Notes under the pieces: generated by a model
Told to the model about the DNA's origin: nothing
The model's database searches: none
What the model saw: the letters and a program-made list of their open reading frames with translations, nothing else
Assembly: GCF_013167455.1 (NCBI RefSeq)
Contig: NZ_CP038328.1
Strand: one strand, 5' to 3'
Length of the DNA: 64,000 bases
Source of the DNA: Escherichia coli O157:H7
GTDB lineage: Bacteria > Pseudomonadota > Gammaproteobacteria > Enterobacterales > Enterobacteriaceae
Part shown: one piece after another, positions 1-42,830 of the stretch
Numbering within the stretch: the first letter of the stretch is position 1
How the letters are laid out: each line of letters starts with the position of its first letter
Translations under genes and position numbers: made by a program

Positions 1-1
1 T

Positions 2-214
2 CAATTTACCGCAAACGTAACCGAAGGCCGTAACAGTGGGATGACGAAAAGAGAATATTATCAGCGACTTGATAACATGAACGGTAAGGCCGACGTCACC
101 CAGCAGATGATAACGCTCTATAAGACTTTTGTTGACTACGTATATGAACATCCAAAGCAAGACGCAAAGATTTCAGGGACGTATATTTATACTAACTGTA
201 TGAACAACTTCTAG
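2..214 (+). CDS. Hypothetical protein, C-terminal ~70 codons only (5' end lies outside the window)
   Basis: Stop-free reading frame from the window edge to TAG at 212-214, same strand and 151 bp upstream of the 366..1682 gene; no recognisable family from the fragment. Confidence 0.35.
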   Translation, partial: QFTANVTEGRNSGMTKREYYQRLDNMNGKADVTQQMITLYKTFVDYVYEHPKQDAKISGTYIYTNCMNNF

Positions 215-365
215 AAACGTAGGTGCCTGAACATGATAGAACTCAGCTGCCAGCATAGAGTGGAAAGCGGAGGCTTACCATCGTATATTCATCGCGTTAT
301 CTTTCCGTAACTATAATCTGTCTCAGTTGATCTAGTGCCTTTCAGGGCTGAACTAAGGAATAAAG

Positions 366-1682
366 ATGAATGACGGTGTTATGCTAGATTCTGACGTTAT
401 TGCTGGTCTTGAGTGGTTAGCATCAACTCAAGAGAACAAACAACACTTTTACCAGCGCTTAGCAAAAGCACAGCAATTTTACATAGCTACAACCCAAAAA
501 GCTGCCAATTTCGGGAAACAGTTTGACCCAGAATGGTATGGTTCCGACGTGGTTGCTGGTTATTTCGCACAAGCAAAATCGCTTATCGATAATAGAAGGT
601 CTTACGAAGTTACTAATGCTTCAAATATAATACCATGGGTTAAACAATTAGGAGTGTGTGCTAAATCGCTCGATAGAATTACTGGCGCTAGAGATCGCGC
701 AATCAGAATGCTTAAGAATACAACAGTATTACCAGACACAGCCTTATTAGAGTTGGTTCTTGCTGGAAACTATGCATCAGAAGGTTATGAAGTTGAGTTC
801 ATTCCAGAACAAAAAGGGATAGCAAAAACCCCGGAGTTTCGTTGCCGCCTTGGAGATGGCGATTATTTCTTTGTCGAATGCAAAAGGCTTCAGAAAGGTC
901 CTTACGTAAAGCAGGAAATATTACAGCATCATATACGCTCACATCTTGCCGAACTTCATATCAAATCCAAAAAGATGAACGTATGGACTGATGTCACATA
1001 TTTATGTGAAGTTAAAGACGCGCCTGAAAACTATATCATTAGCCACTTAAAAAACTTTAAAGGTGTATTTTATGAATGGAATGATGATTATGGAAAAGGA
1101 ACGATTAGACCGGCCAACTTAAATCTTATCAGGGAAGATATCACTGAAAACGGCTCATTACTAGTCAACACTAAACTTGCTCGTCTTATCAAAGGCTCCC
1201 CTCTGGAAGATGAAAATTACCAAGTTGTTGCTATGGGACGACCAGATGAGCGCGACTCACGTTTCATAACCAAAGTTAAACTTGCTTCTTTGATAACATG
1301 GCGTTGTATCAATGAAAAATCTTTCGATGCACGTTCGCGACATGTAACAAAAACATTAGCAGAGATAGATAACCAGCTTTTGGATTATGGTCTAGGCGTA
1401 GGGCATATAGCTTTGGATGTAGATATTCAAAAGGATGTTGCCGATAAACGAAGGGAAAAAAACTATGCTGCCATAGTAAATTTTGAGCAAAAATCTAAAA
1501 TAGTCCGCCTGAATGTTCATTATCTCGTGCCACGCATAGATGAGAACTCTGCGTGGATGGTAGATGAAACTGCGGATGACTTTTTTACCCATGATCTGGT
1601 CAAATATGTTATCCCATTGACTAAAATATTCCCCGAGGCTGAGGTATTTGAGAATGACCAACCTGGCTGGCATCAAAATTAA
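366..1682 (+). CDS. Hypothetical 438-aa protein; possible PD-(D/E)xK-like nuclease motif (E142/E144 ... D164/D166 ... E171-x-K173)
   Basis: Long ORF with ATG at 366 preceded by AAGGAA RBS-like sequence; motif GYEVEF...GDGDYFFVECK read directly from the translation; family assignment not possible without HMM search. Confidence 0.6.
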   Translation: MNDGVMLDSDVIAGLEWLASTQENKQHFYQRLAKAQQFYIATTQKAANFGKQFDPEWYGSDVVAGYFAQAKSLIDNRRSYEVTNASNIIPWVKQLGVCAKSLDRITGARDRAIRMLKNTTVLPDTALLELVLAGNYASEGYEVEFIPEQKGIAKTPEFRCRLGDGDYFFVECKRLQKGPYVKQEILQHHIRSHLAELHIKSKKMNVWTDVTYLCEVKDAPENYIISHLKNFKGVFYEWNDDYGKGTIRPANLNLIREDITENGSLLVNTKLARLIKGSPLEDENYQVVAMGRPDERDSRFITKVKLASLITWRCINEKSFDARSRHVTKTLAEIDNQLLDYGLGVGHIALDVDIQKDVADKRREKNYAAIVNFEQKSKIVRLNVHYLVPRIDENSAWMVDETADDFFTHDLVKYVIPLTKIFPEAEVFENDQPGWHQN

Positions 1683-1880
1683 TTTATTTTTGATAGTATG
1701 AACGAGGGTAGCATTTCTATACAAATCAGTGTTCGGCTGATAGCGAGTTAAACAGTTTACTGAAATGTTCTCAGCAATTAGCTGTTGCCAGGACCTCAAA
1801 AATCCGATTCTGGCGGAAAGTGTGCTGTTTTACCAAGTATTGCTCGTATCTGCAAAGTGTTAGAGCATGTTTTAAGTATA

Positions 1881-2450
1881 TCAGTAACCCTTATTCAGTA
1901 ATGCAGCAAGCGTCGCTCTTGAAACACCGTATTCACGCGCCAATGCGCTAACACTAACCCCAGCGGCCCTTTTGTCTAAAATCGCTCCACGAGCTTCCGG
2001 TGCGATTTTAGCAGGCCTGCCCAATTTCCTGCCTTCAGCTTTTGCCCGTAACAGCCCCGCATTAGTCCGTTCAATCAGCAGGTCACGCTCCATCTCCGCA
2101 ACCGCTGCTAGCATCGACAACAGGAGCTTACCGGCAGCAGAGGTGAGATCAGTGGTGCCAAGCTGATGGACAATAACCTTGATGTTTCGGTCAGCCAACG
2201 TCCTGACAGTTTGCAGAACGTCAATTGCATCACGCCCGAGGCGGTCCAGCTTTGCAACTACCAACGTTTCCCCATCGCGGATTTTGCTGAGCATTTCAAA
2301 AAACGCTTTGCGTTGCACCGCAGGAACCTTTCCGCTGACTACATCAGAAAACCAAAAGTCGAACGTCCACCCAGCTTGTTCAAGTTCCATGCGCTGGTTC
2401 TCAGTATCCTGCTGGGATGTCGAAACACGCCCGTAGCCAAAAATAGCCAT
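1881..2450 (-). CDS. Serine recombinase (resolvase/invertase family)
   Basis: N-terminus MAIFGYGRVSTSQQ contains the catalytic-serine motif typical of resolvase/invertase enzymes; C-terminal helix-turn-helix-like region; GGAGA RBS 6 nt upstream of the chosen ATG (ORF track extends 23 codons further upstream). Confidence 0.8.
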   Translation of the reverse strand: MAIFGYGRVSTSQQDTENQRMELEQAGWTFDFWFSDVVSGKVPAVQRKAFFEMLSKIRDGETLVVAKLDRLGRDAIDVLQTVRTLADRNIKVIVHQLGTTDLTSAAGKLLLSMLAAVAEMERDLLIERTNAGLLRAKAEGRKLGRPAKIAPEARGAILDKRAAGVSVSALAREYGVSRATLAALLNKGY

Positions 2451-2642
2451 AGTCATCTCCTCATCCGGCCCCTGCCAGAAAACGGTGATGAAAATAGGAT
2501 GGCCTGCCGGAAAAGCCAAGGCTAATTTTCCAACAGTGTGAAAGCGTGCGGTTGGAGGATGCCGGAAAACGGTCGTTTGTTGGCGCTTAAAACGGGTGAA
2601 GACATGTTAGGCTGAAACCATCACTTCATAAGGACAACCGAA

Positions 2643-3110
2643 ATGATTAAAGACGCGATTTTTTCACCGTGCGGTAAGTATCGCTACTCGTTATCACGAG
2701 TCTGGGACGAATCAAAACCGTATACCCTTTTCATAGGGCTAAACCCTTCATACGCCGATGCCGAGAAGGATGATCGCACCTTGAGCCGCTGCATATCGTT
2801 TGCCAAAAGCTGGGGCTACGGTGGCGTATACATGGCCAACCTGTTCGCATTCGTTCACACCCAGCGACATGAAATGATGAAAGCGTCTGATCCCATTGGC
2901 AAAGATAACGATAGCCACTTGATACGTCTTGTTAGCGGTGCCGGACTGGTTGTCGCCGCATGGGGAAATGAAGGAAGACACCTCAAACGCTCAACGACCG
3001 TCCGACAGCTATTGCCAGAGAGCACAATGTGCTTCGTCTTAAACGCTACAGGTGAGCCGAAGCACCCTTTGTATATGAAAAACGACAGTGTTCTCATACC
3101 TTTAGGTTAA
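2643..3110 (+). CDS. DUF1643-family protein (155 aa), function unknown
   Basis: Translation (FSPCGKYRYSL...FIGLNPSYAD...) resembles DUF1643 proteins; AGGA RBS before ATG; followed by a 9-bp stem hairpin at 3120-3143. Confidence 0.65.
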   Translation: MIKDAIFSPCGKYRYSLSRVWDESKPYTLFIGLNPSYADAEKDDRTLSRCISFAKSWGYGGVYMANLFAFVHTQRHEMMKASDPIGKDNDSHLIRLVSGAGLVVAAWGNEGRHLKRSTTVRQLLPESTMCFVLNATGEPKHPLYMKNDSVLIPLG

Positions 3111-4113
3111 CATCGATAACTGCGTTCAGAATATGAACGCAGCCATATGATATATATGACTTTTCTTTAAAATGATGGTGTGCTAGCTTCTCTCCTGACA
3201 CCTACCTCATGCGGTAAACCGGTCCGGGTAGGTGGAGATCACCGCTGTTTAGCGGAAGACGTCAGGATGGGAACTCTGCGTAACGTTGATTGTGGTAGGT
3301 AGGGCGCGCAAGCGTTTGATGCAGCCAAGCAGAGGGTGAAAGTAGCTATCGGCGGATTCTTAAGTAGCTTCTTTTGCGCATAATGCATCTTTCAAGAAAG
3401 GTCGTCACACCACGAGGAAGACTTGATCTTCATCTGGCAAGGGGAACCGAGCAAACCTACAGGCTATCTTCTCAGATGGCCTTAGGGTTGATATGTCCGG
3501 CTTCCCCCCCGAGGAAGGGTTTACATCTTAAAGAACAAGTTATGTTTTAACATTTTTAACAATTACACTTCTCTGCTGTTTGGTGTCTTATGGCGTTCCC
3601 GTCAAAAGTAAAGCTGCCGTTTTTACCTCACATGCGTAACAACCAAACACGAACCAGAAGCTGCTAACGTTCAACGTGTTCGCGGTGTAAATGCAGCCGG
3701 ATAAGTTGGGAGCGAAAAAGTGGATGTCCTAGGTTTGGAAGCGCCCCTCTTAAGCATTGCATCCGATAATTTCCGTGGCGGTGAGACAGTCCTTATAGAG
3801 GCAATCAGCCTCCAAAGTTAAGCGACGCGGTAAAACTAAAGCTCGCCCAGATTTCTCATTGATTGCTCGAACTCCGCTACGCTTGTTTCAACTGGCTTCA
3901 CCAGTCACTCTATGAGAGCGCCGCGAATTCTGCACCATGATTTCGACTACCTTCTTTAAAACACTCGCCAGAGAGCCTTACAGCGCGTTTGAACCGCATA
4001 TCGCAGCTTCTGCTTACGGATGACTGTCTGATTAGCAGTAGCTTCATGGCCCAGTCCGGTTTACTTTATTGCTATCAACTAGGAGCCGCCCAAGGGCAAC
4101 ACGGAGATAACGC

Positions 4114-4446
4114 TTGAGAACCGTCGAAATACTGCAATACACCTTACGCAAAGGCAGCGGTGCCGCTTTTCACGCCATAATGCAGGAAATCAGTGTTCCC
4201 CTACACCAAAGCCACGGGATCGATGTTGTTTCGTTTGGCAACTCGCTTGATGACCTGGATTGCTACTACTTGATTCGCGCCTTTGACAGCGCTAAAAGCA
4301 TGACTGCGGTTCTCGATGCTTTTTACGCAAGCGCAGACTGGCGCAGCGGCCCACGCGAAGACATCATTGGCAGCATAGAGAACTGCATTAAAACAGTGAT
4401 TAGCCTACCATCAGAAAGCGTGAAAGGGCTGCGGATGCAATCGTAA
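4114..4446 (+). CDS. NIPSNAP-like small protein (110 aa), TTG start
   Basis: ORF bounded by an in-frame TAA at 4108-4110; GGAG 9 nt upstream of TTG; sequence resembles NIPSNAP/Dabb-like small proteins. Confidence 0.45.
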   Translation: MRTVEILQYTLRKGSGAAFHAIMQEISVPLHQSHGIDVVSFGNSLDDLDCYYLIRAFDSAKSMTAVLDAFYASADWRSGPREDIIGSIENCIKTVISLPSESVKGLRMQS

Positions 4447-4567
4447 GTAATCAAGTGTATTAGCTTAGATTTGACCTAAACAGCTTTGTGCCAAAAGTGG
4501 ACTAGGAAAAGCCTAGCGATAAAGAGTTGAGTTTAATAACTACTAACTGAAATTTAATGGGTGATAT

Positions 4568-4945
4568 ATGAATTTAGATGAAGAATTTTACGAATTACAA
4601 AAACTCTTTGCTCAGAAGGATCTACTGACTGAGAAAAGACGCTCTAGTGGCGGCGGATTCATGGAAATTCTCTTGGTGAAGAGACAGAACATGAAGATAA
4701 AAATATATCAAGAAAAAGGACATCAACTTCCCCATATTCATATTGACTATGGAAAACAAGCGCATGCTGCCAGTTATGCCATACAATCAGGAGACCGCAT
4801 AGAGGGAGATTTACCTAAGAAATATGATAGTGATGTTTCGAGTTGGTTGGGGAGAAATCGTGATAAAATTTTAGAAATCTGGAATGCACTACAAGCTGGC
4901 GCACCTTATGAACCACTAATCGCAGAATTGACTGGCGGAGTGTGA
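4568..4945 (+). CDS. DUF4160-family protein with ~30-aa N-terminal extension
   Basis: Core ...KIKIYQEKGHQLPHIHIDYGKQ...GDLPKK...W... matches the DUF4160 signature (HxPHFH...Y.G); start uncertain (internal Met at residue 42 is an alternative). Confidence 0.5.
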   Translation: MNLDEEFYELQKLFAQKDLLTEKRRSSGGGFMEILLVKRQNMKIKIYQEKGHQLPHIHIDYGKQAHAASYAIQSGDRIEGDLPKKYDSDVSSWLGRNRDKILEIWNALQAGAPYEPLIAELTGGV

Positions 4946-5127
4946 CTAACTAAATAATTTTCCCCTAAAAAAATTCGATGTAGGAAAATATATATAAGTA
5001 AGAATCATGAGTGTCCGCTCCTCGCTCAAGGCGGACTGTTAGACTTGATTGTATGCTGTCAGAGAAAACCGTCAGATCAATTCTGTGAACCGCCCCGGGT
5101 TTCCTGGAGAGTGTTTTATCTGTGAAC

Positions 5128-6018
5128 TCAGGCTGCCAGATCATCGTTTCCGATGGAAGCATAATAAGCTTTTTCTGCTTCTGCCGGAGGAGTATGGCCC
5201 AGCCTTCCCAGCAATCGTCGATTGTTATACCAGTCCACCCACGTTAGTGTGGCCAGTTCCACTTCTGCACGGTTTTTCCAGCTCTTACGGTGTATTACCT
5301 CCGCTTTGTAAAGACCATTGATGCTCTCAGCCATCGCGTTGTCATACGAGTCGCCTGTACTCCCTGTTGATGCCAGTAATCCGGCTTCTTTTAGTCGCTC
5401 CGTATAGGCCAGTGACACATACTGAGAGCCTTTATCGCTGTGATGGATGGTGCCAGACGGACGACGGGCCCACAACGCCTGCTCCAGCGCATCCAGCACG
5501 AATGTCGTTTCCATAGACGATGAGACCCGCCACCCCACGATGTATCCGGCAAACACATCAATGATAAACGCCACATAGACGAAGCCCTGCCATGTGCTGA
5601 CGTAAGTAAAATCAGCCACCCACAGCTGGTCAGGTCGTTCTGCCACGAACTGACGGTTTACGCGGTCGCCTGCGGCAACGGCTTTCCGGCTGATGGTCGT
5701 ACGGACCTTTTTACCCCGGAGAACACCGGCAAGTCCCATAACCGCCATGAGACGTGCCACTGTACATCTGGCCACCCTGATTCCTTCCCGTAACAACTGA
5801 CGCCAGACTTTACGCACACCGTACACCTGATGATTTTCATCGTATACGCGCTGTATCTCTCTCTTCAGCCAGTCGTCGTGCTGCGCACGGGCACTGCGTT
5901 TATCCGGATGATGTCGCTGTTGCTGACAATGGTAATACGTTGACGGGGCAATATGCAGTTCGCTGCATACCGGTCCGACCCCGTACTGCTCACGCAGCTT
6001 ATCCAGCAGTGGCATCAT
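5128..6018 (-). CDS. IS3-family transposase OrfB (integrase/DDE catalytic domain)
   Basis: 296-aa ORF with DDE-transposase features (..WVADFTYV.. / ..HSDKGSQY.. / ..DNAMAES..), overlapping OrfA in the -1 frame. Confidence 0.85.
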
Positions 6019-6341
6019 TTTTTCCAGAGGCGGTCGAACTCCGCCTTCGCAAAATAAGCGGAAGCCTGGCGAAGGATATCGTTACTGCGGCGCAGTTCAC
6101 GATTTTCACGTTCCAGCTCTTTCAGACGCTGACGTTCAGCGCTGGTGAGCCCACCATCACCGCCCCCGGTATCCCGCTCATGCTGGCGAACCCAGACACG
6201 CAGAGTCTCCGGCGTACAGCCAATCTTTGGGGCAATGGAACAAATTGCCGCCCACTGTGAGTCATATTCATCCTGACTTTCCAGAACCATACGAATCGCC
6301 CGCTGACGGACTTCGGGGGAAAAACGAGTATTTTTAGTCAT
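6015..6341 (-). CDS. IS3-family transposase OrfA (HTH / leucine-zipper part)
   Basis: 108-aa [22 protein letters not shown]... ending in the A-rich slippery region CTGGAAAAAATGA that overlaps the OrfB start. Confidence 0.85.
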
Positions 6342-6392
6342 CCTGTTTACCTCTTTCTCAGGGAGTTTAGTCTCCAGGATTTCCGGGGCGGT

Positions 6393-8366
6393 TCACTTTC
6401 TTCGCAGCGCATCTCTTACAGCATCCAGCCCATCAGGAATGTTGAATCTCGCTATCTCGGGCAAAGAAAAATCAATCTTTTCGACAACCTCAACCATGTG
6501 AACCGGTTTTAAATCTTTGCTGTATCGCACTTCAGTTTCTGTTTTGCCTCGCACATGCCCAAGTAGCTGCCCACGCAGTTCCGAACTAACACCCTTCTCT
6601 TTAAGCAAAGTTGAAACAGAATGCCGGAAAGAGTGGAAAGATTTGCTTCTGTCTCTTTCAAGTTTTAATCGACCCGCAAGCAATGATTCATTGAACCATG
6701 CGGAAACCGGCCTACCATAGCCTTTGGTTTTATGTGGTTTAAGCTCGGGAAAAAGACGGTCATACCCGGCAGCTTTCAACGCATCCACATACTCGATAAA
6801 ACCGAGTTCAATCAGCGTAGAATGAACCGGAATCTTGCGGCGGGAATTGGCGTTTTTTAGTTTCTTTCCGTTTTCGCTATCGCTTTCAAGGTTCAGGTAA
6901 TAAACGCCGTCATCTGCCAGAACATCGTCCAGCATTAACTGTGCAATCTCGTTAACCCTTGCCCCCGTCATCAAGCCCAACAACGGCGCCCAATAGTGAA
7001 ACGGGCAATATTGATGGAATCGCCCTTGCGCATTACGTTCAACAGTTCCAGCGACAAACCACGGTTGCGAAAAAATTGCCTTAATTTCATGCGGTTCAAA
7101 TATGTCAGTGTGATCCTGCTCTCGCTCACCTTTGTCATCGGGAGGGAAAAAGTTGTCGCATGGCGATTTCAGAAACTTACCATCATCAACAGCCCACTCC
7201 ATTGCACCATAAAGGCCGTTGATATACTTTTTGACAGACTCTTCTGTCATCAGTTTATCGCCACATTCTGCCGCTTTGGCGATTAACTCATCCAGCGTCT
7301 TAACCCCGTGCTTACCTTTCATCAAATTACGGTTAGCAGGAATTGTGCGCAACTTGCTCTCATAAGCCCGGAGGAAATCACGGTCGAAATCTTCCAACTG
7401 AATATCCCCCATCACTTCAATCATCAAATCGAAGTAATAGCGAATATCGCGGAGCGCCGCTTCTGATACCTTGCCCTTACGTCGATGTTTCAAATACTCT
7501 TCACGAAGCCATGACAAGTTTTCATTGTAATGTTTGCGGTGAACATATTCATTAGCGATAACAGGAGCGACAAGAGGCACGGCAGGGTGAATGCTAACTG
7601 CTGGTGGCGTGGTCTTAACCAGCCATGTAAGTCGAAGGCCTTCAGCATGAACTTTGCTAATCAACAGGCTATCAGCAGTTATATCTACGCCGGGTAAATC
7701 GAAGAACCAACCTCCACTTTGGTTATCACCACTAGTTCGAAATGCAGCCTCTCCTTCGGATACTCCAGCGCTCAACAGACAATCTAAAGTATGCCGGGGA
7801 TTGAAGGGGCGGAGATAACCATTTGCGAAGCTCTCGATACCCAGCTCAAACGCGCTATTGAGAATGATGACTTCTTTAGGTTGATCCTTTTCATCATCAG
7901 ACTGTTTTTCTCGTTTTGCACCCGGTTCCCGCTCTACTGCATTAAATTCATCAACATAGAAACCGAACTGACCAGTCGCCAGCCAGAATACCGGGAGGTT
8001 ACGATTAACCACCTCTCGAATCAATTGCGATATAGGCAACTCGATTGATTGAGCAAAGTTAGAAAGCGAGATCATACCCTCACCAGCAAGCAGTGGGGCG
8101 CAGTCACTTAAAGTTCGATAATCCAATTGTTCATACTCTTGTAAGGTCTGATACCAGACCGCCAACAGGAGCGCGGACTTCTGCTTTGCTTCATGAAGAT
8201 CGTGAGTGCCTGTTGAAGTGTGAATCTCACACTGTCCTGCGTATCGACGAAAACGTTGGGGAACGCTAATGCGGACAACATAAATGCCGCTGGTTCGACG
8301 ATAGAGTTTATATCGCTGAGACATCGCCTCGTATACCCTTTTGTAAGAGGGGCTACGCGATTTCAA
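6393..8366 (-). CDS. Tyrosine-type site-specific integrase (657 aa) of the leuX island
   Basis: C-terminal catalytic signature (R...HSFRHS...HVRGKTETEVRY); same strand as and immediately 3' of tRNA-Leu; stop codon coincides with the last 3 bp of the IS element. Confidence 0.85.
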   Translation of the reverse strand: MKSRSPSYKRVYEAMSQRYKLYRRTSGIYVVRISVPQRFRRYAGQCEIHTSTGTHDLHEAKQKSALLLAVWYQTLQEYEQLDYRTLSDCAPLLAGEGMISLSNFAQSIELPISQLIREVVNRNLPVFWLATGQFGFYVDEFNAVEREPGAKREKQSDDEKDQPKEVIILNSAFELGIESFANGYLRPFNPRHTLDCLLSAGVSEGEAAFRTSGDNQSGGWFFDLPGVDITADSLLISKVHAEGLRLTWLVKTTPPAVSIHPAVPLVAPVIANEYVHRKHYNENLSWLREEYLKHRRKGKVSEAALRDIRYYFDLMIEVMGDIQLEDFDRDFLRAYESKLRTIPANRNLMKGKHGVKTLDELIAKAAECGDKLMTEESVKKYINGLYGAMEWAVDDGKFLKSPCDNFFPPDDKGEREQDHTDIFEPHEIKAIFSQPWFVAGTVERNAQGRFHQYCPFHYWAPLLGLMTGARVNEIAQLMLDDVLADDGVYYLNLESDSENGKKLKNANSRRKIPVHSTLIELGFIEYVDALKAAGYDRLFPELKPHKTKGYGRPVSAWFNESLLAGRLKLERDRSKSFHSFRHSVSTLLKEKGVSSELRGQLLGHVRGKTETEVRYSKDLKPVHMVEVVEKIDFSLPEIARFNIPDGLDAVRDALRRK

Positions 8367-8414
8367 GCAAGATTATGAATTAAATTGTTTTAAAACAATA
8401 GTTTAGATGAGTCT

Positions 8415-8499
8415 TGGTGCCGAAGGCCGGACTCGAACCGGCACGTATTTCTACGGTTGATTTTGAATCAACTGCGTCTACCGATTTCGCCACTTCGGC
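8415..8499 (-). tRNA. leuX: tRNA-Leu (anticodon CAA)
   Basis: Reverse complement reads GCCGAAGTGGCGAAATCGGTAGACGCAGTTGATTCAAAATCAACC...GGTTCGAGTCCGGCCTTCGGCACCA: cloverleaf-compatible, CAA anticodon loop, CCA end. Confidence 0.9.
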
Positions 8500-8694
8500 A
8501 CTGAAGAGGTATGCGGAAAACGTTGTGGATTATACCTGTCGCACGCCACCATGCAAGCGCCAGCTTGCTCGCACCTCGCTAAGTGCTGAAATTTTCAGCA
8601 TTGCATACAGCGATGTGTAACCTTTGTCACACTCCAGGCACCCCGCCCTGCCATGCTCTACACTTCCCAAACAACACCAGAGAAGGACCAAAAA

Positions 8695-9714
8695 ATGTCG
8701 ATGATAAAAAGCTATGCCGCAAAAGAAGCGGGCGGCGAACTGGAAGTTTATGAGTACGATCCCGGTGAGCTGAGGCCACAAGATGTTGAAGTGCAGGTGG
8801 ATTATTGCGGGATCTGCCATTCCGATCTATCGATGATCGACAATGAATGGGGATTTTCACAATATCCGCTGGTTGCCGGGCATGAGGTGATTGGGCGCGT
8901 GGTGGCGCTCGGGAGCGCCGCGCAGGATAAAGGTTTGCAGGTCGGCCAGCGTGTCGGGATTGGCTGGACGGCGCGTAGCTGTGGTCACTGCGACGCCTGT
9001 ATTAGCGGTAATCAGATCAACTGCGAGCAAGGTGCTGTGCCGACGATTATGAATCGCGGTGGCTTTGCCGAGAAGTTGCGTGCGGACTGGCAATGGGTGA
9101 TTCCACTGCCAGAAAATATTGATATCGAGTCCGCCGGGCCGCTGTTGTGCGGCGGTATCACGGTCTTTAAACCACTGTTGATGCACCATATCACTGCTAC
9201 CAGCCGCGTTGGGGTAATTGGTATTGGCGGGCTGGGGCATATCGCTATAAAACTTCTGCACGCAATGGGATGCGAGGTGACGGCCTTTAGTTCTAATCCG
9301 GCGAAAGAGCAGGAAGTACTGGCGATGGGTGCCGATAAAGTGGTGAATAGCCGCGATCCGCAGGCACTGAAAGCCCTGTCGGGGCAGTTTGATCTCATTA
9401 TCAATACTGTGAACGTCAGCCTCGACTGGCAGCCTTATTTTGAGGCGCTGACCTATGGCGGTAATTTCCATACGGTCGGTGCGGTTCTCACGCCGTTGCC
9501 GGTTCCGGCCTTTACGCTGATTGCGGGCGATCGCAGTGTCTCTGGCTCTGCTACCGGTACACCTTATGAGTTGCGTAAGCTGATGCGCTTTGCCGCCCGC
9601 AGCAAGGTTGCGCCGACTACCGAATTGTTCCCGATGTCGAAAATTAACGATGCCATCAAGCATGTGCGCGACGGTAAGGCGCGTTACCGCGTGGTTCTGA
9701 AAGCTGACTTCTGA
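8695..9714 (+). CDS. ahr: NADPH-dependent aldehyde reductase (Zn-dependent alcohol dehydrogenase family)
   Basis: Translation [26 protein letters not shown]... with GHEVIG and CGxCxxC zinc motifs; ORF track start is 14 codons upstream. Confidence 0.9.
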
Positions 9715-9843
9715 TCTCTTTGCCGGGTGCCTGTCGCCCGGCACTTAAATCTCTTTGGAAGGCGTCTCGCAATCTGCTGAATTTAGCGGTGAAGAGTGCG
9801 CAGCCGTTGCCTATACTCCAGGCAGGAAACTGGAGGATATCTC

Positions 9844-11346
9844 ATGAGCGAACCCCTGTTAATTGCCCGCACGCCGGACACAGAACTATTTTTACTGCCG
9901 GGAATGGCTAACCGTCACGGGCTGATTACTGGCGCAACGGGGACGGGTAAAACTGTCACGCTGCAAAAACTGGCGGAGTCATTGTCGGAAATCGGCGTGC
10001 CGGTGTTTATGGCTGATGTGAAAGGCGATCTGACCGGTATCGCGCAGGCAGGAACGGCGTCGGAAAAACTGCTCGCAAGGCTTAAAAATATCGACGTCAA
10101 TGACTGGCAACCGCATGCTAATCCGGTGGTGGTGTGGGATATCTTTGGCGAGAAAGGCCATTCGGTACGGGCGACGGTTTCAGACCTGGGGCCACTGTTG
10201 CTGGCGCGGCTGTTGAATCTCAACGATGTGCAATCTGGCGTGCTGAATATCATCTTCCGCATTGCTGACGATCAGGGGCTGTTACTGCTCGACTTTAAAG
10301 ATCTGCGGGCGATTACCCAGTACATCGGCGATAACGCCAAATCTTTCCAGAATCAGTACGGAAATATCAGTAGCGCATCGGTTGGTGCCATCCAGCGCGG
10401 GCTGTTGTCGCTGGAACAGCAAGGCGCAGCACACTTCTTTGGTGAGCCGATGCTGGATATCAAAGACTGGATGCGCACCGATGCCAACGGTAAAGGCGTT
10501 ATCAATATCCTCAGCGCCGAGAAACTTTATCAGATGCCGAAACTGTACGCCGCCAGCCTGCTGTGGATGCTCTCAGAGTTGTATGAACAATTGCCGGAAG
10601 CGGGCGATCTGGAGAAACCAAAACTGGTGTTTTTCTTCGACGAAGCACATCTGCTGTTTAACGATGCACCGCAGGTACTGCTGGATAAGATTGAGCAGGT
10701 GATAAGGCTTATTCGCTCAAAAGGCGTGGGCGTCTGGTTCGTTTCGCAAAACCCGTCTGATATTCCGGATAATGTGCTCGGCCAGCTCGGTAATCGCGTT
10801 CAGCACGCTTTGCGGGCTTTTACGCCCAAAGATCAGAAAGCAGTAAAAGCTGCGGCGCAAACCATGCGGGCCAATCCGGCGTTTGATACCGAAAAGGCGA
10901 TTCAGGAACTGGGCACCGGCGAGGCGTTGATCTCTTTTCTGGATGCGAAAGGAAGCCCTTCTGTGGTGGAGCGTGCGATGGTGATCGCGCCTTGTTCGCG
11001 GATGGGGCCGGTGACGGAAGATGAGCGTAATGGCTTGATTAATCACTCTCCGGTGTATGGCAAATATGAGGATGAGGTGGACCGGGAATCCGCCTATGAG
11101 ATGTTGCAAAAAGGCTTTCAGGCCAGTACCGAGCAGCAAAATAATCCCCCCGCGAAAGGGAAAGAGGTAGCGGTGGATGACGGCATTCTTGGTGGATTGA
11201 AGGATATTTTGTTCGGCACTACCGGACCACGCGGCGGGAAGAAAGATGGTGTGGTGCAAACAATGGCCAAAAGCGCCGCTCGCCAAGTGACGAATCAGAT
11301 TGTACGCGGGATGTTGGGGAGTTTGCTGGGGGGGAGAAGAAGGTAA
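9844..11346 (+). CDS. yjgR: DUF853-family P-loop NTPase YjgR
   Basis: Translation [12 protein letters not shown]...GATGTGKT (Walker A); conserved position next to lptG. Confidence 0.85.
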
Positions 11347-35232: not shown

Positions 35233-36888
35233 ATGACTAATCTTCCCCACTGGTGGCAAAACGGCGTTATCTACCAGATTTATCCAAAGAGTTTTCAGGA
35301 CACCACGGGTAGCGGCACCGGCGATTTACGTGGCGTTATCCAACGCCTGGACTATCTGCATAAACTGGGCGTTGATGCCATCTGGCTAACCCCCTTTTAT
35401 GTCTCTCCGCAGGTCGATAACGGTTACGATGTAGCGAACTATACGGCGATTGATCCCACCTACGGCACGCTGGACGATTTTGACGAACTGGTGACGCAGG
35501 CAAAATCGCGCGGGATTCGTATCATTCTCGATATGGTGTTTAACCATACCTCTACCCAACATGCCTGGTTTCGCGAGGCGCTGAACAAAGAAAGCCCTTA
35601 CCGCCAGTTTTATATCTGGCGCGATGGCGAACCAGAAACGCCACCGAACAACTGGCGTTCAAAATTTGGCGGTAGTGCGTGGCGCTGGCATGCGGAAAGC
35701 GAACAGTACTATTTGCATCTCTTTGCACCAGAACAGGCGGATCTCAACTGGGAGAATCCAGCGGTACGCGCAGAGCTGAAAAAAGTCTGTGAGTTCTGGG
35801 CCGATCGTGGGGTCGACGGGTTGCGCCTGGATGTGGTGAATCTGATCTCCAAAGACCCGCGTTTCCCTGATGACCTGGATGGCGACGGGCGTCGCTTCTA
35901 CACCGACGGGCCACGAGCACACGAGTTTTTGCACGAGATGAACCGCGATGTGTTTACGCCACGCGGGTTAATGACCGTAGGTGAAATGTCCTCCACCAGC
36001 CTTGAGCATTGCCAGCGATACGCGGCACTGACAGGCAGTGAATTGTCGATGACCTTTAATTTTCATCACCTGAAGGTCGATTATCCCGGTGGTGAAAAAT
36101 GGACGCTGGCTAAACCTGACTTTGTGGCGTTGAAAACATTGTTCCGCCACTGGCAACAAGGAATGCACAACGTAGCATTGAATGCCTTGTTCTGGTGTAA
36201 CCACGATCAGCCGCGCATTGTTTCTCGCTTTGGTGATGAAGGTGAATACCGCGTGCCTGCGGCAAAAATGCTGGCGATGGTGCTGCATGGCATGCAGGGA
36301 ACGCCGTATATCTACCAGGGCGAAGAGATTGGCATGACCAACCCGCATTTCACGCGCATTACTGACTATCGCGACGTAGAGAGCCTCAATATGTTTGCCG
36401 AGCTGCGCAACGATGGGCGTGATGCCGACGAGTTATTGGCAATCCTCGCCAGTAAATCCCGTGACAACAGCCGCACGCCCATGCAATGGAGCAACGGCGA
36501 TAATGCCGGGTTTACGGCTGGCGAACCGTGGATTGGCCTGGGCGATAACTATCAACAAATCAACGTAGAAGCCGCGCTGGCCGATGAGTCCTCGGTGTTT
36601 TACACCTACCAAAAGTTAATCGCACTGCGTAAGCAGGAAGCCATCCTGACATGGGGCAATTACCAGGATCTGCTGCCAAACAGCCCTGTATTGTGGTGCT
36701 ATCGCCGTGAATGGAAGGGGCAAACCTTGCTGGTCATTGCCAACCTTAGCCGTGAGATCCAACCCTGGCAGCCAGGGCAAATGCGCGGCAACTGGCAGCT
36801 TGTGATGCATAACTACGAAGAAGCCTCACCACAACCCTGTGCCATGACTTTACGGCCTTTTGAGGCTGTCTGGTGGTTACAGAAGTAA
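35233..36888 (+). CDS. treC: Trehalose-6-phosphate hydrolase
   Basis: GH13 translation MTNLPHWWQNGVIYQIYPKSF...; ORF track start is upstream, overlapping treB. Confidence 0.9.
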   Translation: MTNLPHWWQNGVIYQIYPKSFQDTTGSGTGDLRGVIQRLDYLHKLGVDAIWLTPFYVSPQVDNGYDVANYTAIDPTYGTLDDFDELVTQAKSRGIRIILDMVFNHTSTQHAWFREALNKESPYRQFYIWRDGEPETPPNNWRSKFGGSAWRWHAESEQYYLHLFAPEQADLNWENPAVRAELKKVCEFWADRGVDGLRLDVVNLISKDPRFPDDLDGDGRRFYTDGPRAHEFLHEMNRDVFTPRGLMTVGEMSSTSLEHCQRYAALTGSELSMTFNFHHLKVDYPGGEKWTLAKPDFVALKTLFRHWQQGMHNVALNALFWCNHDQPRIVSRFGDEGEYRVPAAKMLAMVLHGMQGTPYIYQGEEIGMTNPHFTRITDYRDVESLNMFAELRNDGRDADELLAILASKSRDNSRTPMQWSNGDNAGFTAGEPWIGLGDNYQQINVEAALADESSVFYTYQKLIALRKQEAILTWGNYQDLLPNSPVLWCYRREWKGQTLLVIANLSREIQPWQPGQMRGNWQLVMHNYEEASPQPCAMTLRPFEAVWWLQK

Positions 36889-36900
36889 ATCTTCCCTAAG

Positions 36901-36930
36901 CCCCGGTAATGCCGGTCATTCCGGGGTTTT
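36901..36930 (+). terminator. Intrinsic terminator after treC
   Basis: CCCCGG-TAATGCCGGTCATT-CCGGGG hairpin followed by TTTT. Confidence 0.5.
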
Positions 36931-37072
36931 GTCTGTCAGCATGTTGTTTTTGTTGATTTTTCAACCAGCAAATTCATTAAAAAATTTACATAACGCTGTA
37001 GCGCCCGTCATCCGTACGCTCTGCTTTTTACTTTGAGCTACATCAAAAAAAGTTCAAACATCCTTGATGCAA

Positions 37073-37134
37073 AGCACTATATATAGACTTTAAAATGCGT
37101 CCCAACCCAATATGTTGTATCAATCGACTATAAT
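37073..37134. promoter_or_regulatory. Two NrdR-box-like sites and a TATAAT -10 element upstream of nrdDG
   Basis: AGCACTATATATAGAC and ACCCAATATGTTGTAT spaced about three helical turns apart, followed by TATAAT. Confidence 0.5.
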
Positions 37135-37281
37135 TGCTACTACAGCTCCCCACGAAAAAGGTGCGGCGTTGTGGATAAGCGGATGGCGATTGCGGAAAGC
37201 ACCGGAAAACGAAACGAAAAAACCGGAAAACGCCTTTCCCAATTTCTGTGGATAACCTGTTCTTAAAAATATGGAGCGATC

Positions 37282-39420
37282 ATGACACCGCATGTGATGA
37301 AACGAGACGGCTGCAAAGTGCCGTTTAAATCAGAGCGCATCAAAGAAGCGATTCTGCGTGCAGCTAAAGCAGCGGAAGTCGATGATGCCGATTATTGCGC
37401 CACTGTTGCTGCAGTTGTCAGCGAGCAGATGCAGGGCCGCAACCAGGTGGATATCAATGAGATCCAGACCGCTGTTGAAAACCAGCTGATGTCAGGTCCA
37501 TACAAACAACTGGCTCGTGCTTACATCGAGTACCGTCACGATCGCGACATTGAACGTGAAAAACGCGGTCGCCTGAATCAGGAGATCCGTGGTCTGGTCG
37601 AGCAGACCAACGCCTCGTTACTCAACGAAAACGCCAACAAAGACAGCAAGGTGATTCCAACCCAGCGCGACCTGCTGGCCGGGATCGTGGCTAAACACTA
37701 TGCACGTCAGCACCTGCTGCCGCGTGACGTGGTGCAGGCACATGAGCGTGGCGATATTCACTATCACGATCTCGATTACTCACCGTTTTTCCCGATGTTC
37801 AACTGCATGTTGATCGACCTGAAAGGCATGCTGACCCAGGGCTTTAAGATGGGGAACGCCGAGATTGAACCGCCGAAGTCGATCTCTACGGCAACCGCGG
37901 TAACTGCGCAGATTATTGCTCAGGTTGCCAGCCATATTTATGGCGGCACCACCATTAACCGTATCGATGAAGTGCTGGCACCGTTTGTCACCGCCAGCTA
38001 CAACAAACATCGCAAGACCGCAGAAGAGTGGAACATCCCGGACGCCGAAGGCTACGCTAACTCTCGTACCATTAAAGAGTGCTACGATGCCTTCCAGTCG
38101 CTGGAGTACGAAGTAAACACCCTGCACACCGCCAACGGTCAGACGCCGTTTGTAACCTTTGGTTTTGGTCTGGGCACCAGCTGGGAGTCGCGCCTGATTC
38201 AGGAATCTATCCTGCGTAACCGTATCGCAGGCCTCGGTAAAAACCGTAAAACTGCGGTGTTCCCGAAACTGGTGTTTGCGATTCGCGATGGTCTGAACCA
38301 TAAAAAAGGCGATCCGAACTACGACATCAAACAGCTGGCGCTGGAGTGCGCAAGCAAGCGCATGTATCCGGATATCCTGAACTACGATCAGGTAGTGAAA
38401 GTCACCGGTTCGTTTAAAACCCCGATGGGCTGCCGCAGCTTCCTCGGCGTGTGGGAAAATGAAAACGGCGAGCAGATCCACGATGGTCGTAACAACCTCG
38501 GCGTGATCAGCCTGAACCTGCCGCGTATTGCTCTGGAAGCAAAAGGCGATGAAGCCACCTTCTGGAAGCTGCTGGATGAACGTCTGGTGCTGGCACGTAA
38601 GGCTCTGATGACCCGTATCGCTCGTCTCGAAGGCGTGAAAGCGCGCGTGGCCCCGATCCTCTATATGGAAGGTGCTTGTGGCGTGCGTCTCAATGCTGAC
38701 GATGATATTTCTGAAATCTTCAAAAACGGTCGTGCGTCTATTTCGCTGGGTTACATCGGCATCCACGAAACCATTAACGCGCTGTTCGGCGGCGAACATG
38801 TTTACGACAACGAGCAGCTCCGCGCGAAAGGTATCGCCATTGTTGAACGTCTGCGTCAGGCAGTGGATCAGTGGAAAGAAGAAACGGGTTATGGTTTCAG
38901 TCTCTACAGCACGCCGAGTGAAAACCTGTGCGACCGCTTCTGCCGTCTCGATACTGCTGAGTTTGGCGTGGTGCCGGGCGTGACCGATAAAGGTTACTAC
39001 ACCAACAGTTTCCACCTCGATGTGGAGAAGAAGGTGAACCCGTACGACAAGATCGACTTTGAAGCGCCTTACCCGCCGCTGGCGAACGGTGGTTTCATTT
39101 GCTACGGCGAGTATCCAAACATTCAGCACAACCTGAAGGCGCTGGAAGATGTCTGGGATTACAGCTATCAGCATGTACCGTATTACGGCACCAATACACC
39201 GATTGATGAGTGCTACGAGTGTGGCTTTACCGGTGAGTTCGAGTGCACCAGCAAAGGCTTCACCTGCCCGAAATGTGGTAACCATGACGCCTCCCGTGTG
39301 TCGGTAACTCGCCGCGTGTGCGGATATTTAGGTAGCCCGGATGCACGTCCGTTTAACGCCGGCAAGCAGGAAGAAGTTAAGCGCCGCGTTAAACATTTGG
39401 GAAATGGGCAGATAGGTTGA
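37282..39420 (+). CDS. nrdD: Anaerobic ribonucleoside-triphosphate reductase
   Basis: 712-aa translation with C-terminal glycyl-radical region and zinc-ribbon cysteines (CYECGF...CPKCG). Confidence 0.95.
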   Translation: MTPHVMKRDGCKVPFKSERIKEAILRAAKAAEVDDADYCATVAAVVSEQMQGRNQVDINEIQTAVENQLMSGPYKQLARAYIEYRHDRDIEREKRGRLNQEIRGLVEQTNASLLNENANKDSKVIPTQRDLLAGIVAKHYARQHLLPRDVVQAHERGDIHYHDLDYSPFFPMFNCMLIDLKGMLTQGFKMGNAEIEPPKSISTATAVTAQIIAQVASHIYGGTTINRIDEVLAPFVTASYNKHRKTAEEWNIPDAEGYANSRTIKECYDAFQSLEYEVNTLHTANGQTPFVTFGFGLGTSWESRLIQESILRNRIAGLGKNRKTAVFPKLVFAIRDGLNHKKGDPNYDIKQLALECASKRMYPDILNYDQVVKVTGSFKTPMGCRSFLGVWENENGEQIHDGRNNLGVISLNLPRIALEAKGDEATFWKLLDERLVLARKALMTRIARLEGVKARVAPILYMEGACGVRLNADDDISEIFKNGRASISLGYIGIHETINALFGGEHVYDNEQLRAKGIAIVERLRQAVDQWKEETGYGFSLYSTPSENLCDRFCRLDTAEFGVVPGVTDKGYYTNSFHLDVEKKVNPYDKIDFEAPYPPLANGGFICYGEYPNIQHNLKALEDVWDYSYQHVPYYGTNTPIDECYECGFTGEFECTSKGFTCPKCGNHDASRVSVTRRVCGYLGSPDARPFNAGKQEEVKRRVKHLGNGQIG

Positions 39421-39424
39421 TCTG

Positions 39425-39560
<136 letters not shown>

Positions 39561-39609
39561 TTGATTGCCTGATACAGCCTACACGCGGACTGATAAGCCA
39601 GGCGAAATA

Positions 39610-40074
39610 ATGAATTATCATCAGTACTATCCTGTCGACATCGTCAACGGTCCCGGCACTCGCTGCACCCTGTTTGTCTCCGGGTGTGTTCATGAATGCC
39701 CCGGTTGCTATAACAAAAGCACATGGCGGGTAAATTCCGGTCAGCCATTTACTAAAGCAATGGAAGACCAGATCATTAACGATCTGAATGACACTCGTAT
39801 CAAACGCCAGGGTATTTCCCTCTCCGGCGGCGATCCGCTGCATCCGCAAAACGTGCCGGATATTCTGAAACTGGTACAACGCATCCGCGCCGAGTGTCCG
39901 GGTAAAGACATCTGGGTGTGGACAGGCTATAAACTCGACGAACTCAACGCTGCGCAAATGCAGGTTGTTGATTTGATTAACGTGCTGGTCGACGGCAAAT
40001 TTGTGCAGGATTTAAAAGACCCTTCCCTGATCTGGCGCGGCAGCAGCAATCAGGTGGTGCATCATTTGCGATGA
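39610..40074 (+). CDS. nrdG: Anaerobic ribonucleotide reductase activating enzyme (radical SAM)
   Basis: 154-aa translation with CxxxCxxC cluster (CVHECPGC). Confidence 0.9.
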   Translation: MNYHQYYPVDIVNGPGTRCTLFVSGCVHECPGCYNKSTWRVNSGQPFTKAMEDQIINDLNDTRIKRQGISLSGGDPLHPQNVPDILKLVQRIRAECPGKDIWVWTGYKLDELNAAQMQVVDLINVLVDGKFVQDLKDPSLIWRGSSNQVVHHLR

Positions 40075-40118
40075 TAAGTTCCCTGTTACCTGAGTGCAGG
40101 CAACAGGGAAATGAGGAA

Positions 40119-40508
<390 letters not shown>

Positions 40509-40688
40509 TCACTTCCTTTTTTATTTACACTTCATCCTTCACACTGCCTCATCGACGACTACGCTCATTCGACCGGGTCACGTACTGCGAGTACGCTCCC
40601 CGGCCCTCATTCACTTTCCGTCTCGATGCAGTGCGAATGATTTTGTGTAATTTTTTAGTTTATAGCGCGGCAGGTCGCGCCAGTTTTT

Positions 40689-42041
40689 TTACTGTCCGGC
40701 GATTTTCATCTCCGGCAACAGCACAGAACCACACTGTATATTACTGCGTGTTTCAATATCGTTACCGACGGTGACAATATTGCGCCACATATCTTTTAAA
40801 TTACCTGCGATGGTGATTTCGCTAACCGGATACTGAATTTCGCCGTTTTCTACCCAGAAGCCCGCCGCACCACGGGAATAATCACCGGTAATTGCACTCA
40901 CGCCCTGGCCCATCAATTCCGTCACCACCAGCCCGGTGCCCATCTCTTTGAGCATCTGCTCGAAGCTTAGACCTTGTCCGGCAATCCGCCAGTTGTGAAT
41001 ACCGCCCGCATGTCCGGTGCTTTTCAGCCCCAGTTTCCGCGCCGAGTAGCTGGTCAGCAGCCACTGAGTCAGGATGCCATCTTTAATAATATCGCGACGC
41101 TCGGTGCGCACACCTTCGCTGTCAAATGGCGTCGATGCCAGCCCTTTCAGCAGATGCGGATGCTCTTCAATGGTCAGCCAGTCCGGCAGAATTTGTTTAC
41201 CCAGCGAATCCAGCAGGAAGGTAGATTTACGGTAAACCGATCCACCCGCTATCGCCCCCACCAGATGCCCAAAAAGCCCGGTTGCCACTTCATTGGCAAA
41301 AATGACCGGCGCTTTCATGGTGGAGAGTTTACGCGGTGACAGACGCGATAAAGTACGGCGAGCGCAATCGGCCCCGACCCACTCTGGCGTCTGCAAATCG
41401 CTCATCGCGCGGCCAATGGTGTAGGCGTAATCACGCTCCATATCGCCATTTTCTTCGGCAATTACACAGCTGGAGAGCGAATGACGCGTTGAGCAGTAAC
41501 CCTGCAACATGCCGTGGCTGTTGCCAAAAACTTTGACACCGTAGTGGCTGTTAAAGCTGCCACCTTCGGTATTGGTGATGCGTTTGTCCGCCTGCAATGC
41601 CGCCTGTTCTGCGCGGGCCGCCAGTTCAATGGCTTCATCCGGGGAAACTTCCGCAGGGTGGAACAAGTCGAGATCCGGTGCGTCAAAGGCCAGCAGCTCT
41701 TTGTCTGCCACGCCGGCACAGGGATCTGGCGAGGTATAACGGGCAATATCCAGCGCCGCCTGTACAGTACGGGCAATGGCCTGCGGGCTTAAATCGGTGG
41801 ATGATGCGCTACCTTTGCGGTTCTGGTGATAAACAGTGATCCCCAGCGCGCCATCGCTATTGAATTCAACATTCTCCACTTCACCATAACGCGTGCTTAC
41901 GCTAATGCCGGTGGTCTTGCTGACGGCAACTTCCGCACCGTCCGATTTGCCTGAGGCCAACTCCAGCGCAGTGGAAACTGCTTCTTCCAGAATCTTGCGC
42001 TGCGCTTCAACTTGAGAGATTACTTTCATTGCAAGTGCCAT
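40689..42041 (-). CDS. pmbA: Metalloprotease PmbA (TldE)
   Basis: 450-aa translation; TldD/PmbA family. Confidence 0.9.
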
Positions 42042-42134
42042 AATGTAGAGAGTTTCTCTGAAGTCTAACAGAGAACCGTTTTTCAGTGCGCATCTTAACT
42101 GGTAACATTAGCCTCTTTTTTTAAGGAGCCTGAG

Positions 42135-42686
42135 ATGACTAAGCAGCCCGAAGACTGGCTCGACGACGTTCCCGGTGATGACATCGAAGACGAAGACGAT
42201 GAAATTATCTGGGTCAGTAAAAGTGAAATTAAACGTGATGCCGAGGAGCTAAAACGCCTTGGCGCGGAAATTGTTGATCTGGGGAAAAACGCGCTGGATA
42301 AGATCCCGTTAGATGCGGATCTGCGCGCGGCTATTGAGCTCGCCCAGCGTATTAAGATGGAAGGTCGCCGCCGCCAGTTGCAGCTCATCGGTAAGATGCT
42401 GCGCCAGCGCGATGTAGAACCGATCCGTCAGGCGCTGGATAAGCTGAAAAACCGTCACAACCAGCAGGTGGTGCTGTTCCATAAACTGGAAAACCTGCGC
42501 GATCGTCTGATCGATCAAGGTGATGACGCCATCGCTGAGGTATTAAATCTGTGGCCCGATGCCGATCGTCAGCAACTGCGTACTCTGATCCGCAACGCGA
42601 AGAAAGAGAAAGAAGGGAATAAGCCGCCGAAATCCGCACGCCAGATTTTCCAGTATCTGCGCGAACTGGCGGAGAATGAAGGGTAA
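42135..42686 (+). CDS. yjgA: Ribosome-associated protein YjgA (DarP)
   Basis: 183-aa translation with acidic N-terminus, divergent from pmbA. Confidence 0.85.
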
Positions 42687-42699
42687 TTTTCGTTGTTGA

Positions 42700-42830
42700 T
42701 GTGAGTATGGTTTGCCGGATGCGGTGCACCTGTAGGCCTGATAAGACGCATCAAGCGTCGCATCAGGCACTATGCTCAAATGCCGGATGCGGCGTGAACG
42801 CCTTATCCGGCCTACGCACACTATCTCAGG
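42700..42830. repeat. REP/BIME elements between yjgA and mpl
   Basis: Repeated GCCGGATGCGG...CCTTATCCGGCCTAC / GCCTGATAAGACGC...GTCGCATCAGGC units. Confidence 0.75.

Follow-up and report, generated by a model that had tools for sequence, protein, structure and literature searches.

The window analysed here is a stretch of 64,000 nucleotides (64 kb) from the chromosome of Escherichia coli O157:H7 (assembly GCF_013167455.1, contig NZ_CP038328.1). It passes from accessory DNA into the E. coli core chromosome at leuX, a tRNA gene for leucine and a textbook integration hotspot. ARAGORN finds no other tRNA gene in the window, and leuX matches the Rfam tRNA model with 59.4 bits. Core genes lie to its right, beginning with ahr, yjgR, lptGF, pepA, holC and valS and continuing to cpdB. 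The DNA to its left corresponds to an element annotated as SpLE5 in strain Sakai. GC content is 44.5% at positions 1–5084 and 45.9% in the integrase region, compared with 50.9% at positions 8500–64000. The features of the left-hand end are as follows; PGAP denotes the Prokaryotic Genome Annotation Pipeline, IS an insertion sequence and att an attachment site.

1–214, plus strand: 3' end of an ECs5251-like gene (last 71 codons; the full protein has 257 amino acids), from the FRIK1989 and Sakai annotation.
366–1682, plus strand: ECs5250, 438 amino acids; variable cargo with a predicted PD-(D/E)xK nuclease fold.
1881–2450, minus strand: serine recombinase; PHROG 125 DNA invertase (8e-56) and partial NCBIfam matches.
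2643–3110, plus strand: DUF1643 protein, 155 amino acids (PGAP; phrog_3230, 1e-52).
3121–3189, plus strand: promoter-like region, recognised in an alignment of 15 distinct sequences.
3197–3530, plus strand: candidate structured non-coding RNA of ~330 nt; no part of the element backbone is more conserved.
4114–4446, plus strand: NIPSNAP-family protein, 110 amino acids (PGAP); a common backbone or cargo gene.
4568–4945, plus strand: DUF4160 protein, 125 amino acids (PGAP), with a DhiT-toxin-like core at residues 44–111.
5086–6395, minus strand: IS629 (IS1203, IS3 family), 1310 bp, from the Sakai repeat_region annotation, terminal inverted repeats and IS3 transposase matches.
6395/6396: junction of a 166-bp deletion, from alignment with Sakai; it begins exactly at the terminal base of IS629.
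6393–8324, minus strand: integrase gene (PGAP start; the longest open reading frame extends to 8366).
8414–8439: att core of 26 bp, made up of the last 25 nt of leuX and one further base, with an exact repeat at the far end of SpLE5.
8415–8499, minus strand: leuX, tRNA-Leu(CAA), intact; the integration target and the boundary between island and core.

An earlier note, made from the sequence alone, had called an integrase immediately 3' of leuX on the same strand, an IS element, DUF4160, NIPSNAP-like and DUF1643 proteins, a serine recombinase and a 438-amino-acid protein of unknown family. It had read this DNA as accessory cargo, with core genes to the right of leuX. All of these calls are borne out. 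The integrase gene starts 90 nt past the 3' end of leuX on the same strand, the three protein names agree with those that PGAP gives in the matching genome, the recombinase falls in PHROG 125, the 438-amino-acid protein (ECs5250) has no family match, and the IS element is IS629. The core series on the right likewise stands.

The integrase contains 643 amino acids, with two Pfam domains: DUF6538 (residues 7–63) and Phage_integrase (residues 449–595). Its catalytic signature, R456, H564-x-x-R567, H590 and Y601, can be recognised in the translation. FRIK1989 and Sakai both contain an exact copy (26 bp) of the leuX 3' end, TTGGTGCCGAAGGCCGGACTCGAACC (window orientation), at window positions -1656 to -1631, to the left of the window start. 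This second copy occurs exactly once, with zero copies expected by chance, and pairs with the att core at 8414–8439. Beyond the distal copy lie, in order, a hairpin and T run that appear to be the native leuX terminator, and the gene for the truncated P4-type integrase of a second element, SpLE6.

A megablast comparison with 5426 complete E. coli genomes revealed that the window is 100% identical over 9 kb to O157:H7 chromosomes (Sakai, EDL933, Xuzhou21 and many others). The match falls into two pieces, and a gap of 166 bp is the only difference. The Sakai record NC_002695.2 annotates the matching DNA as "phage-like element SpLE5" (10,235 bp, ECs5242–ECs5252), directly adjoined by "phage-like element SpLE6" (34 kb). 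Measured with its repeats, SpLE5 is 10,070 bp long in FRIK1989 and 10,236 bp in Sakai. The window holds ~84% of it; the absent 1.66 kb comprises ECs5252, the start of ECs5251 and the distal att site, which places the far boundary 1.63 kb left of the window start. The closest record is FRIK1989 (NZ_CP111101.1), which has two single-nucleotide differences from the window DNA in 18.4 kb. These substitutions are G/A at 1112 in ECs5250 and C/T at 5410 in the IS629 transposase.

The DNA left of leuX displays the hallmarks of a tRNA-associated island: a tRNA gene at the boundary with an adjoining integrase gene, a distal repeat of the tRNA end, variable presence with a precise empty site, and deviant base composition. 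We put at about 93% the probability that window 1–8439 represents 8.4 kb at the leuX end of SpLE5, an integrative island of O157:H7 that measures ~10.1 kb and forms the leuX-proximal part of O-island 172 (OI-172), with the following history. A circular form would have recombined by means of its DUF6538-type tyrosine integrase, attP pairing with the leuX 3' end. Integration would have regenerated an intact leuX and displaced the old leuX 3' end, the native terminator and the resident SpLE6 by 10 kb. Comparison of genomes shows the later events: IS629 entered between the DUF4160 and integrase genes, leaving a CTG duplication, and an IS-adjacent deletion of 166 bp then clipped six integrase codons in this lineage alone.

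The earlier note's central proposal, an integrative island at leuX, agrees with the att repeats, the empty site and the patchy presence alike. The distal direct repeat of the leuX 3' end that it proposed to look for is present, and the comparison of leuX loci across genomes that it suggested shows variable cargo and a precise empty site (figures below). Its expectation that the island runs past the window start with unseen extent was right in the first part; the boundary, however, lies just 1.6 kb away and is followed by the separate SpLE6. The island and its presence/absence polymorphism are already known from published work (PMC1890555, PMC3681947). Lineage II O157 strains lack exactly SpLE5 (ECs5242–ECs5252) (PMC1890555). 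Annotation of SpLE5/OI-172 at leuX goes back to the O157:H7 genome papers, and the island's polymorphism already serves as a lineage marker. The window copy shares with the published SpLE5/OI-172 identical DNA, genes ECs5242–ECs5251, the leuX site and the position of IS629. It differs in that it lacks 166 bp beside IS629 and encodes an integrase six codons shorter. The practical outcome of our analysis is that the far boundary and the neighbour of the window's island are fixed and that SpLE5 can be placed in a family of modular minimal elements.

The relation of SpLE5 to SpLE6 bears on whether the window end was gained together with its neighbour. OI-172 of EDL933 is described as one island of 44,434 bp beside the leucine tRNA gene, with two integrases (PMC3681947), and SpLE5 and SpLE6 are adjacent in all O157:H7 genomes listed. 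If these 44 kb had arrived in a single event, positions 1–8499 would be just the integrase-proximal end of a larger island. This view is already contradicted, and we consider it highly improbable. SpLE5 is divided from SpLE6 by a copy of the leuX 3' end that lies inside OI-172 and is accompanied by the native tRNA terminator, and SpLE6 has a truncated integrase of its own. Strain 10671 carries SpLE6 alone with a perfect leuX junction, and O55:H7 has the distal part of OI-172 but not the left part (PMC3681947). Conversely, relatives of SpLE5 occur without SpLE6 (AR76.3, Yersinia). SpLE6 is a second, independent island rather than a continuation of SpLE5, and SpLE5 appears to have inserted in front of it. 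A repeat of leuX at the far end of SpLE6 was sought, and no match of at least 11 nt was found.

SpLE5 and SpLE6 resemble each other in their leuX target and in an integrase-mediated insertion that duplicates the tRNA 3' end. Further islands with P4-type integrases at leuX are KpLE2 of K-12 and pathogenicity island (PAI) II of uropathogenic E. coli strain 536. SpLE5 differs from the P4-type islands in that its integrase is a 650-residue protein of DUF6538 type, not of the Arm-DNA-bind_3/DUF4102 type. It is also small (10 kb) and PADLOC-negative in its window proteins, whereas SpLE6 carries type II Zorya.

The distribution of the element is that of an acquired island. At least 80% of window 1–5084 is present in 228 of the 5426 genomes (~4%), in every case with at least 99% identity. 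A search with the integrase gene identified the O157 allele in 232 genomes (at least 99% identity) and an allele of ~85% identity at leuX in 366. Strain 10671 contains a contiguous empty junction that is 100% identical to the prediction, with leuX followed by the native terminator and SpLE6 and no SpLE5 between. SpLE5 is not universal, because its cargo is confined to those 228 genomes and strain 10671 has the empty junction. An artificial query composed of the SpLE6 flank, one repeat and leuX was matched over at least 80% of its length in 670 genomes.

The 166-bp gap that separates the window from other O157:H7 chromosomes is associated with IS629. The Sakai copy of IS629 is bordered by a 3-bp CTG target duplication, which indicates simple insertion. 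The IS629-free site is found in 95 genomes (at least 99% identity in 71 of them), in agreement with the reported absence of two transposase genes from strains TW14359 and EC4115 (PMC3681947). These comparisons show that IS629 is a later insertion between the DUF4160 and integrase genes. An ALIL frameshift pseudoknot is located within it at 5944–6060.

Lost with the deletion are the right-hand copy of the target duplication, a spacer stretch of 145 bp, and the stop codon and final six codons (RGKQTG) of the integrase gene. A TGA inside the IS629 terminus provides the new stop, giving 643 amino acids here versus 649 in Sakai. A 60-nt probe across the junction matches a single genome of the 5426, FRIK1989, and all other O157 genomes keep the 166 bp after the IS end. 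By this comparison, the deletion followed the insertion of IS629, in this lineage alone. Deletions adjacent to IS629 are reportedly a known class of O157 micro-polymorphism, from work ascribed to Ooka (2009) and Kusumoto (2011). The lineage-specific clipping of the integrase can serve as a strain marker, and it provides a natural experiment on whether excision requires the C-terminal tail.

Several observations weigh against the account of SpLE5 as a mobile island with the history given above. No excisionase or recombination directionality factor was recognised among SpLE5 proteins. Empty sites elsewhere may reflect ancestral absence rather than excision. The label "defence-like" for the cargo would follow from names, fold and neighbourhood only, with PADLOC negative. 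Finally, the window copy itself may be immobile, as its integrase lacks six C-terminal residues and an IS element adjoins the gene. The last point can be taken further: IS629 and the deletion might have inactivated excision, leaving an immobilised remnant that is now fixed chromosomal DNA. The lost residues and native stop codon, the position of IS629 between the integrase gene and the rest of SpLE5, and the lack of a recognised excisionase all fit such a remnant. Against it, the truncation falls downstream of every catalytic residue, Y601 included, the lost RGKQTG tail is beyond the end of the Pfam catalytic domain (residue 595), and both att repeats are exact. We regard immobilisation of this copy as a real possibility, though not the outcome we would expect.

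The "phage-like element" label in NC_002695.2 raises the question of whether SpLE5 is a decayed prophage or a phage satellite. PHROG matches for the integrase, the invertase and two families of unknown function are compatible with this origin, and the tRNA attachment site and small size resemble those of satellites. However, neither SpLE5 nor any of ~20 relatives examined contains a gene for capsid, tail, terminase, lysis, primase/replicase, AlpA or packaging redirection. More broadly, NCBIfam, PHROGs, Pfam and the RefSeq annotation yielded no virion, packaging, replication or helper-exploitation gene in SpLE5 and its relatives. The 1-kb interval between the DUF1643 and NIPSNAP genes has no match in 50,697 phage records, and a 24-mer from its conserved core is absent from IMG/VR. 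Across relatives, the backbone has stayed intact and conserved rather than eroding. A prophage or satellite origin is accordingly improbable. Nor does SpLE5 resemble an integrative and conjugative or integrative and mobilizable element. No relaxase or type IV secretion system match was found, and the sole MobT match is a 15-bit overlap with a helix-turn-helix (HTH) domain; an origin of transfer (oriT) is not excludable by sequence alone.

Comparison with other genomes places the integrative island SpLE5 in a family of 7–10-kb elements that share a backbone: an XRE-type HTH gene, an ECs5251-like gene for an exported protein, a serine recombinase gene, a non-coding module and an integrase gene. 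Sister elements at leuX (E. coli AR76.3, DG351-2 and ATCC 25922, Yersinia ruckeri and Serratia) have the same order: XRE-HTH, ECs5251-like, serine recombinase, in some cases DUF1643, non-coding module, in some cases NIPSNAP, and DUF6538 integrase. Those that carry the ~85% identical integrase allele (AR76.3, DG351-2 and a metagenome contig) are 7–10 kb long, with att repeats of 26–28 bp; across the related leuX elements the repeats measure 25–28 bp. Sisters at glyU, a tRNA-Gly gene (E. coli CX04, W619 and C5), have the same backbone, tRNA-end repeats (19 bp) and size at a different tRNA target. Their integrase is 37% identical to that of SpLE5, and their serine recombinase, DUF1643 and HTH proteins are 86–92% identical. 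Overall, sister elements differ from SpLE5 in their integrases (37–83% identical) and in their cargo, and mostly lack IS629. At least four integrase types thus occur on one backbone, at leuX, glyU and other sites.

The variable slots of the relatives hold AbiJ-NTD4, HNH endonucleases, AIPR, DUF2971, NUDIX, DUF4468, DUF6602 or a 338-amino-acid protein; in SpLE5, they are occupied by ECs5250 and DUF4160. From these gene contents, SpLE5 looks like a member of a modular minimal integrative family that exchanges integrase/att modules and defence-like cargo.

Two related sequences were found in less usual settings. The 92-kb resistance plasmid pCP53-92k (NZ_CP033095.1) contains a related fragment, composed of integrase and NIPSNAP genes, beside another tyrosine integrase gene, the two being separated by 44 nt from the 3' end of leuX (5554–10662 of the stretch examined). 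From this arrangement, the plasmid may have captured a leuX island array, or the element may have integrated into an att copy that the plasmid carried. The 9.9-kb contig JAIJJM010000048.1, assigned to a Collinsella metagenome-assembled genome, carries an enterobacterial leuX and a complete element of the SpLE5 family with a layout identical to that of AR76.3. It is probably a binning contaminant.

The interval at 3110–4114 has no open reading frame longer than 58 codons and contains the non-coding module of the family. We aligned 15 distinct module sequences, drawn from E. coli genomes and from 26 metagenome contigs that a 20-mer from the core had retrieved. Pairwise identity averages 98–99% over window positions ~3265–3445, compared with 72% just upstream and 83% at the edges. 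At the same loci, the serine recombinases are 80–89%, the ECs5251-like proteins 54–87% and the integrases (four types) 36–100% identical. The module always lies between the serine recombinase and integrase genes, in elements with four integrase types. Its immediate neighbours vary: DUF1643, DUF6602 or no gene upstream, and NIPSNAP, a 190-amino-acid protein or no gene downstream. The core is single-copy per genome. The module is the family's only universally conserved non-protein part, ~330 nt in length and unannotated.

Upstream of the module lie a perfect palindrome, TGCGTTCAGAATATGAACGCA, at 3121–3141, which is unique within SpLE5, and an invariant TGATATATA at 3148–3156. These are followed by an extended -10 element (TG-n-TAnnnT) at 3181–3189, in which exactly the promoter-critical bases are invariant; conservation of the module begins directly after it. 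A generic promoter scan did not flag 3121–3189. We also considered the palindrome as an operator of the XRE/ECs5251 intergenic region, where it is not present.

The plus strand of the alignment folds more stably than the minus strand (alifold, -109.9 versus -91.0 kcal/mol), with many G-U pairs. The first stem contains two compensatory pairs, CACCTACC/GGTAGGTG versus CATCTATC/GATAGATG, while the remainder is invariant. Pairing cells amount to 99.3% in the module alignment versus 99.0% in shuffled alignments, the DNA outside the first stem being too invariant for covariation. Support from covariation is thin because an nhmmer search gave no more diverged copies in the Yersinia, Serratia, Kosakonia and CX04 loci. 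One chimera from an RNase E crosslinking, ligation and sequencing of hybrids (CLASH) experiment in strain Sakai (PMC5286369, supplement 5) includes 36 nt identical to 3302–3337 on the plus strand, labelled "ECs5247 5'UTR" (5' untranslated region). The plus strand is therefore transcribed, although a single read proves little beyond this. Rfam 15 does not match the module at E values up to 1 (positions 1–9000) or up to 10 (positions 3100–4120), and its one hit is a chance small nucleolar RNA match elsewhere.

Other identities for this interval were tried and rejected. A multicopy miniature inverted-repeat transposable element is ruled out by the single copy per genome. The 58-codon frame at 3374–3550 is broken by indels inside the conserved core. 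A tblastn search revealed no similarity to the 338-amino-acid protein that occupies the same slot in glyU elements, of which the interval might have been a pseudogene. As phage or plasmid sequence it has, besides the negative phage search above, two short plasmid matches only. Esr41, considered as an island small RNA here, is located in OI-43.

It is with some hesitation that we propose that the interval encodes an undescribed structured RNA of ~330 nt (~3197–3530, plus strand), which would have an extended -10 promoter of its own and, upstream, a palindromic operator. This RNA would be the most strongly conserved part of an unnamed family of small tRNA-targeting elements of Enterobacterales with variable defence-like cargo. 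It would serve a core function of the element (e.g., maintenance, regulation of excision, or defence/counter-defence) rather than being spacer DNA. Our confidence in this proposal falls somewhat below an even chance. As an alternative explanation, the extreme identity of the module may be due to recent recombination among elements, which is visible as mosaic blocks of identity. If the module is a functional RNA, it would represent a new class of element-encoded RNA and provide a handle on the persistence and movement of gene-poor islands. As an island, SpLE5 is ordinary; the one new lead at this locus is the conserved, transcribed non-coding module. Two further pieces of the interval, 3640–3800 and 3893–3976, are 77–89% conserved in glyU-type E. 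coli elements and in Yersinia ruckeri, at differing positions relative to genes.

Among the protein-coding genes, the ECs5251-like gene is a conserved backbone gene rather than variable cargo. Its product has an N-terminal hydrophobic segment that resembles a signal peptide and four invariant cysteines. Homologues adjoin the XRE gene in most related elements, and the family is limited to Enterobacterales. The protein has no match in Pfam, NCBIfam or PADLOC, and its AlphaFold model is poor (predicted local distance difference test score, pLDDT, 61) and not usable for a fold search.

ECs5250 likewise has no family match in NCBIfam, PADLOC and Pfam-type scans. Its relatives form 58 clusters, mostly from Enterobacterales and none annotated. 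Invariant P156, E171 and K173 form a PD...ExK motif (P156-E/D157 ... E171-x-K173). The AlphaFold model is confident (pLDDT 91.8), includes an extra C-terminal alpha/beta domain and resembles nucleases with the restriction-endonuclease fold (NucC, HamA, SduA and CdiA-CT). In Klebsiella, homologues stand as single genes next to a prophage integrase; in Acidisoma, the island that contains one also holds HEPN_AbiV and AAA_13 genes. ECs5250 is best read from its predicted fold as a stand-alone nuclease-fold effector, a candidate for single-gene defence or a nuclease effector. It was recovered in a transposon screen for calf colonisation (PMC1890555).

The serine recombinase is 80–89% identical in all related elements. 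No inverted repeats flank an invertible segment on which it might act; the only meaningful pair is formed by the ends of IS629. DUF1643 is a frequent neighbour of the non-coding module but is replaced by DUF6602 or absent in some relatives, and the NIPSNAP protein is 79–96% identical in many. DUF4160 is cargo specific to the O157 version, being absent from a related element that was compared. It scores 49 bits against the NCBIfam DhiT model, below the cut-off of 100. We considered a DUF2442 antitoxin partner disrupted by IS629; in-silico removal of the IS from the Sakai sequence left no open reading frame across the site. With PADLOC, the six window proteins and ECs5251 gave no match, and the XRE protein alone matched "control protein" models.

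leuX is a recognised, hypervariable site for defence genes, E. coli defence hotspot 37 (PMC12707154), and SpLE6 is reported to carry type II Zorya and other systems (bioRxiv 10.1101/2025.09.22.677730). In FRIK1989, SpLE6 contains type II Zorya, a phosphorothioate-dependent restriction endonuclease, and large helicase and methylase genes (36842–42774 of the stretch examined left of the window). A copy of ISEc8 is inserted beside zorE in the same island.

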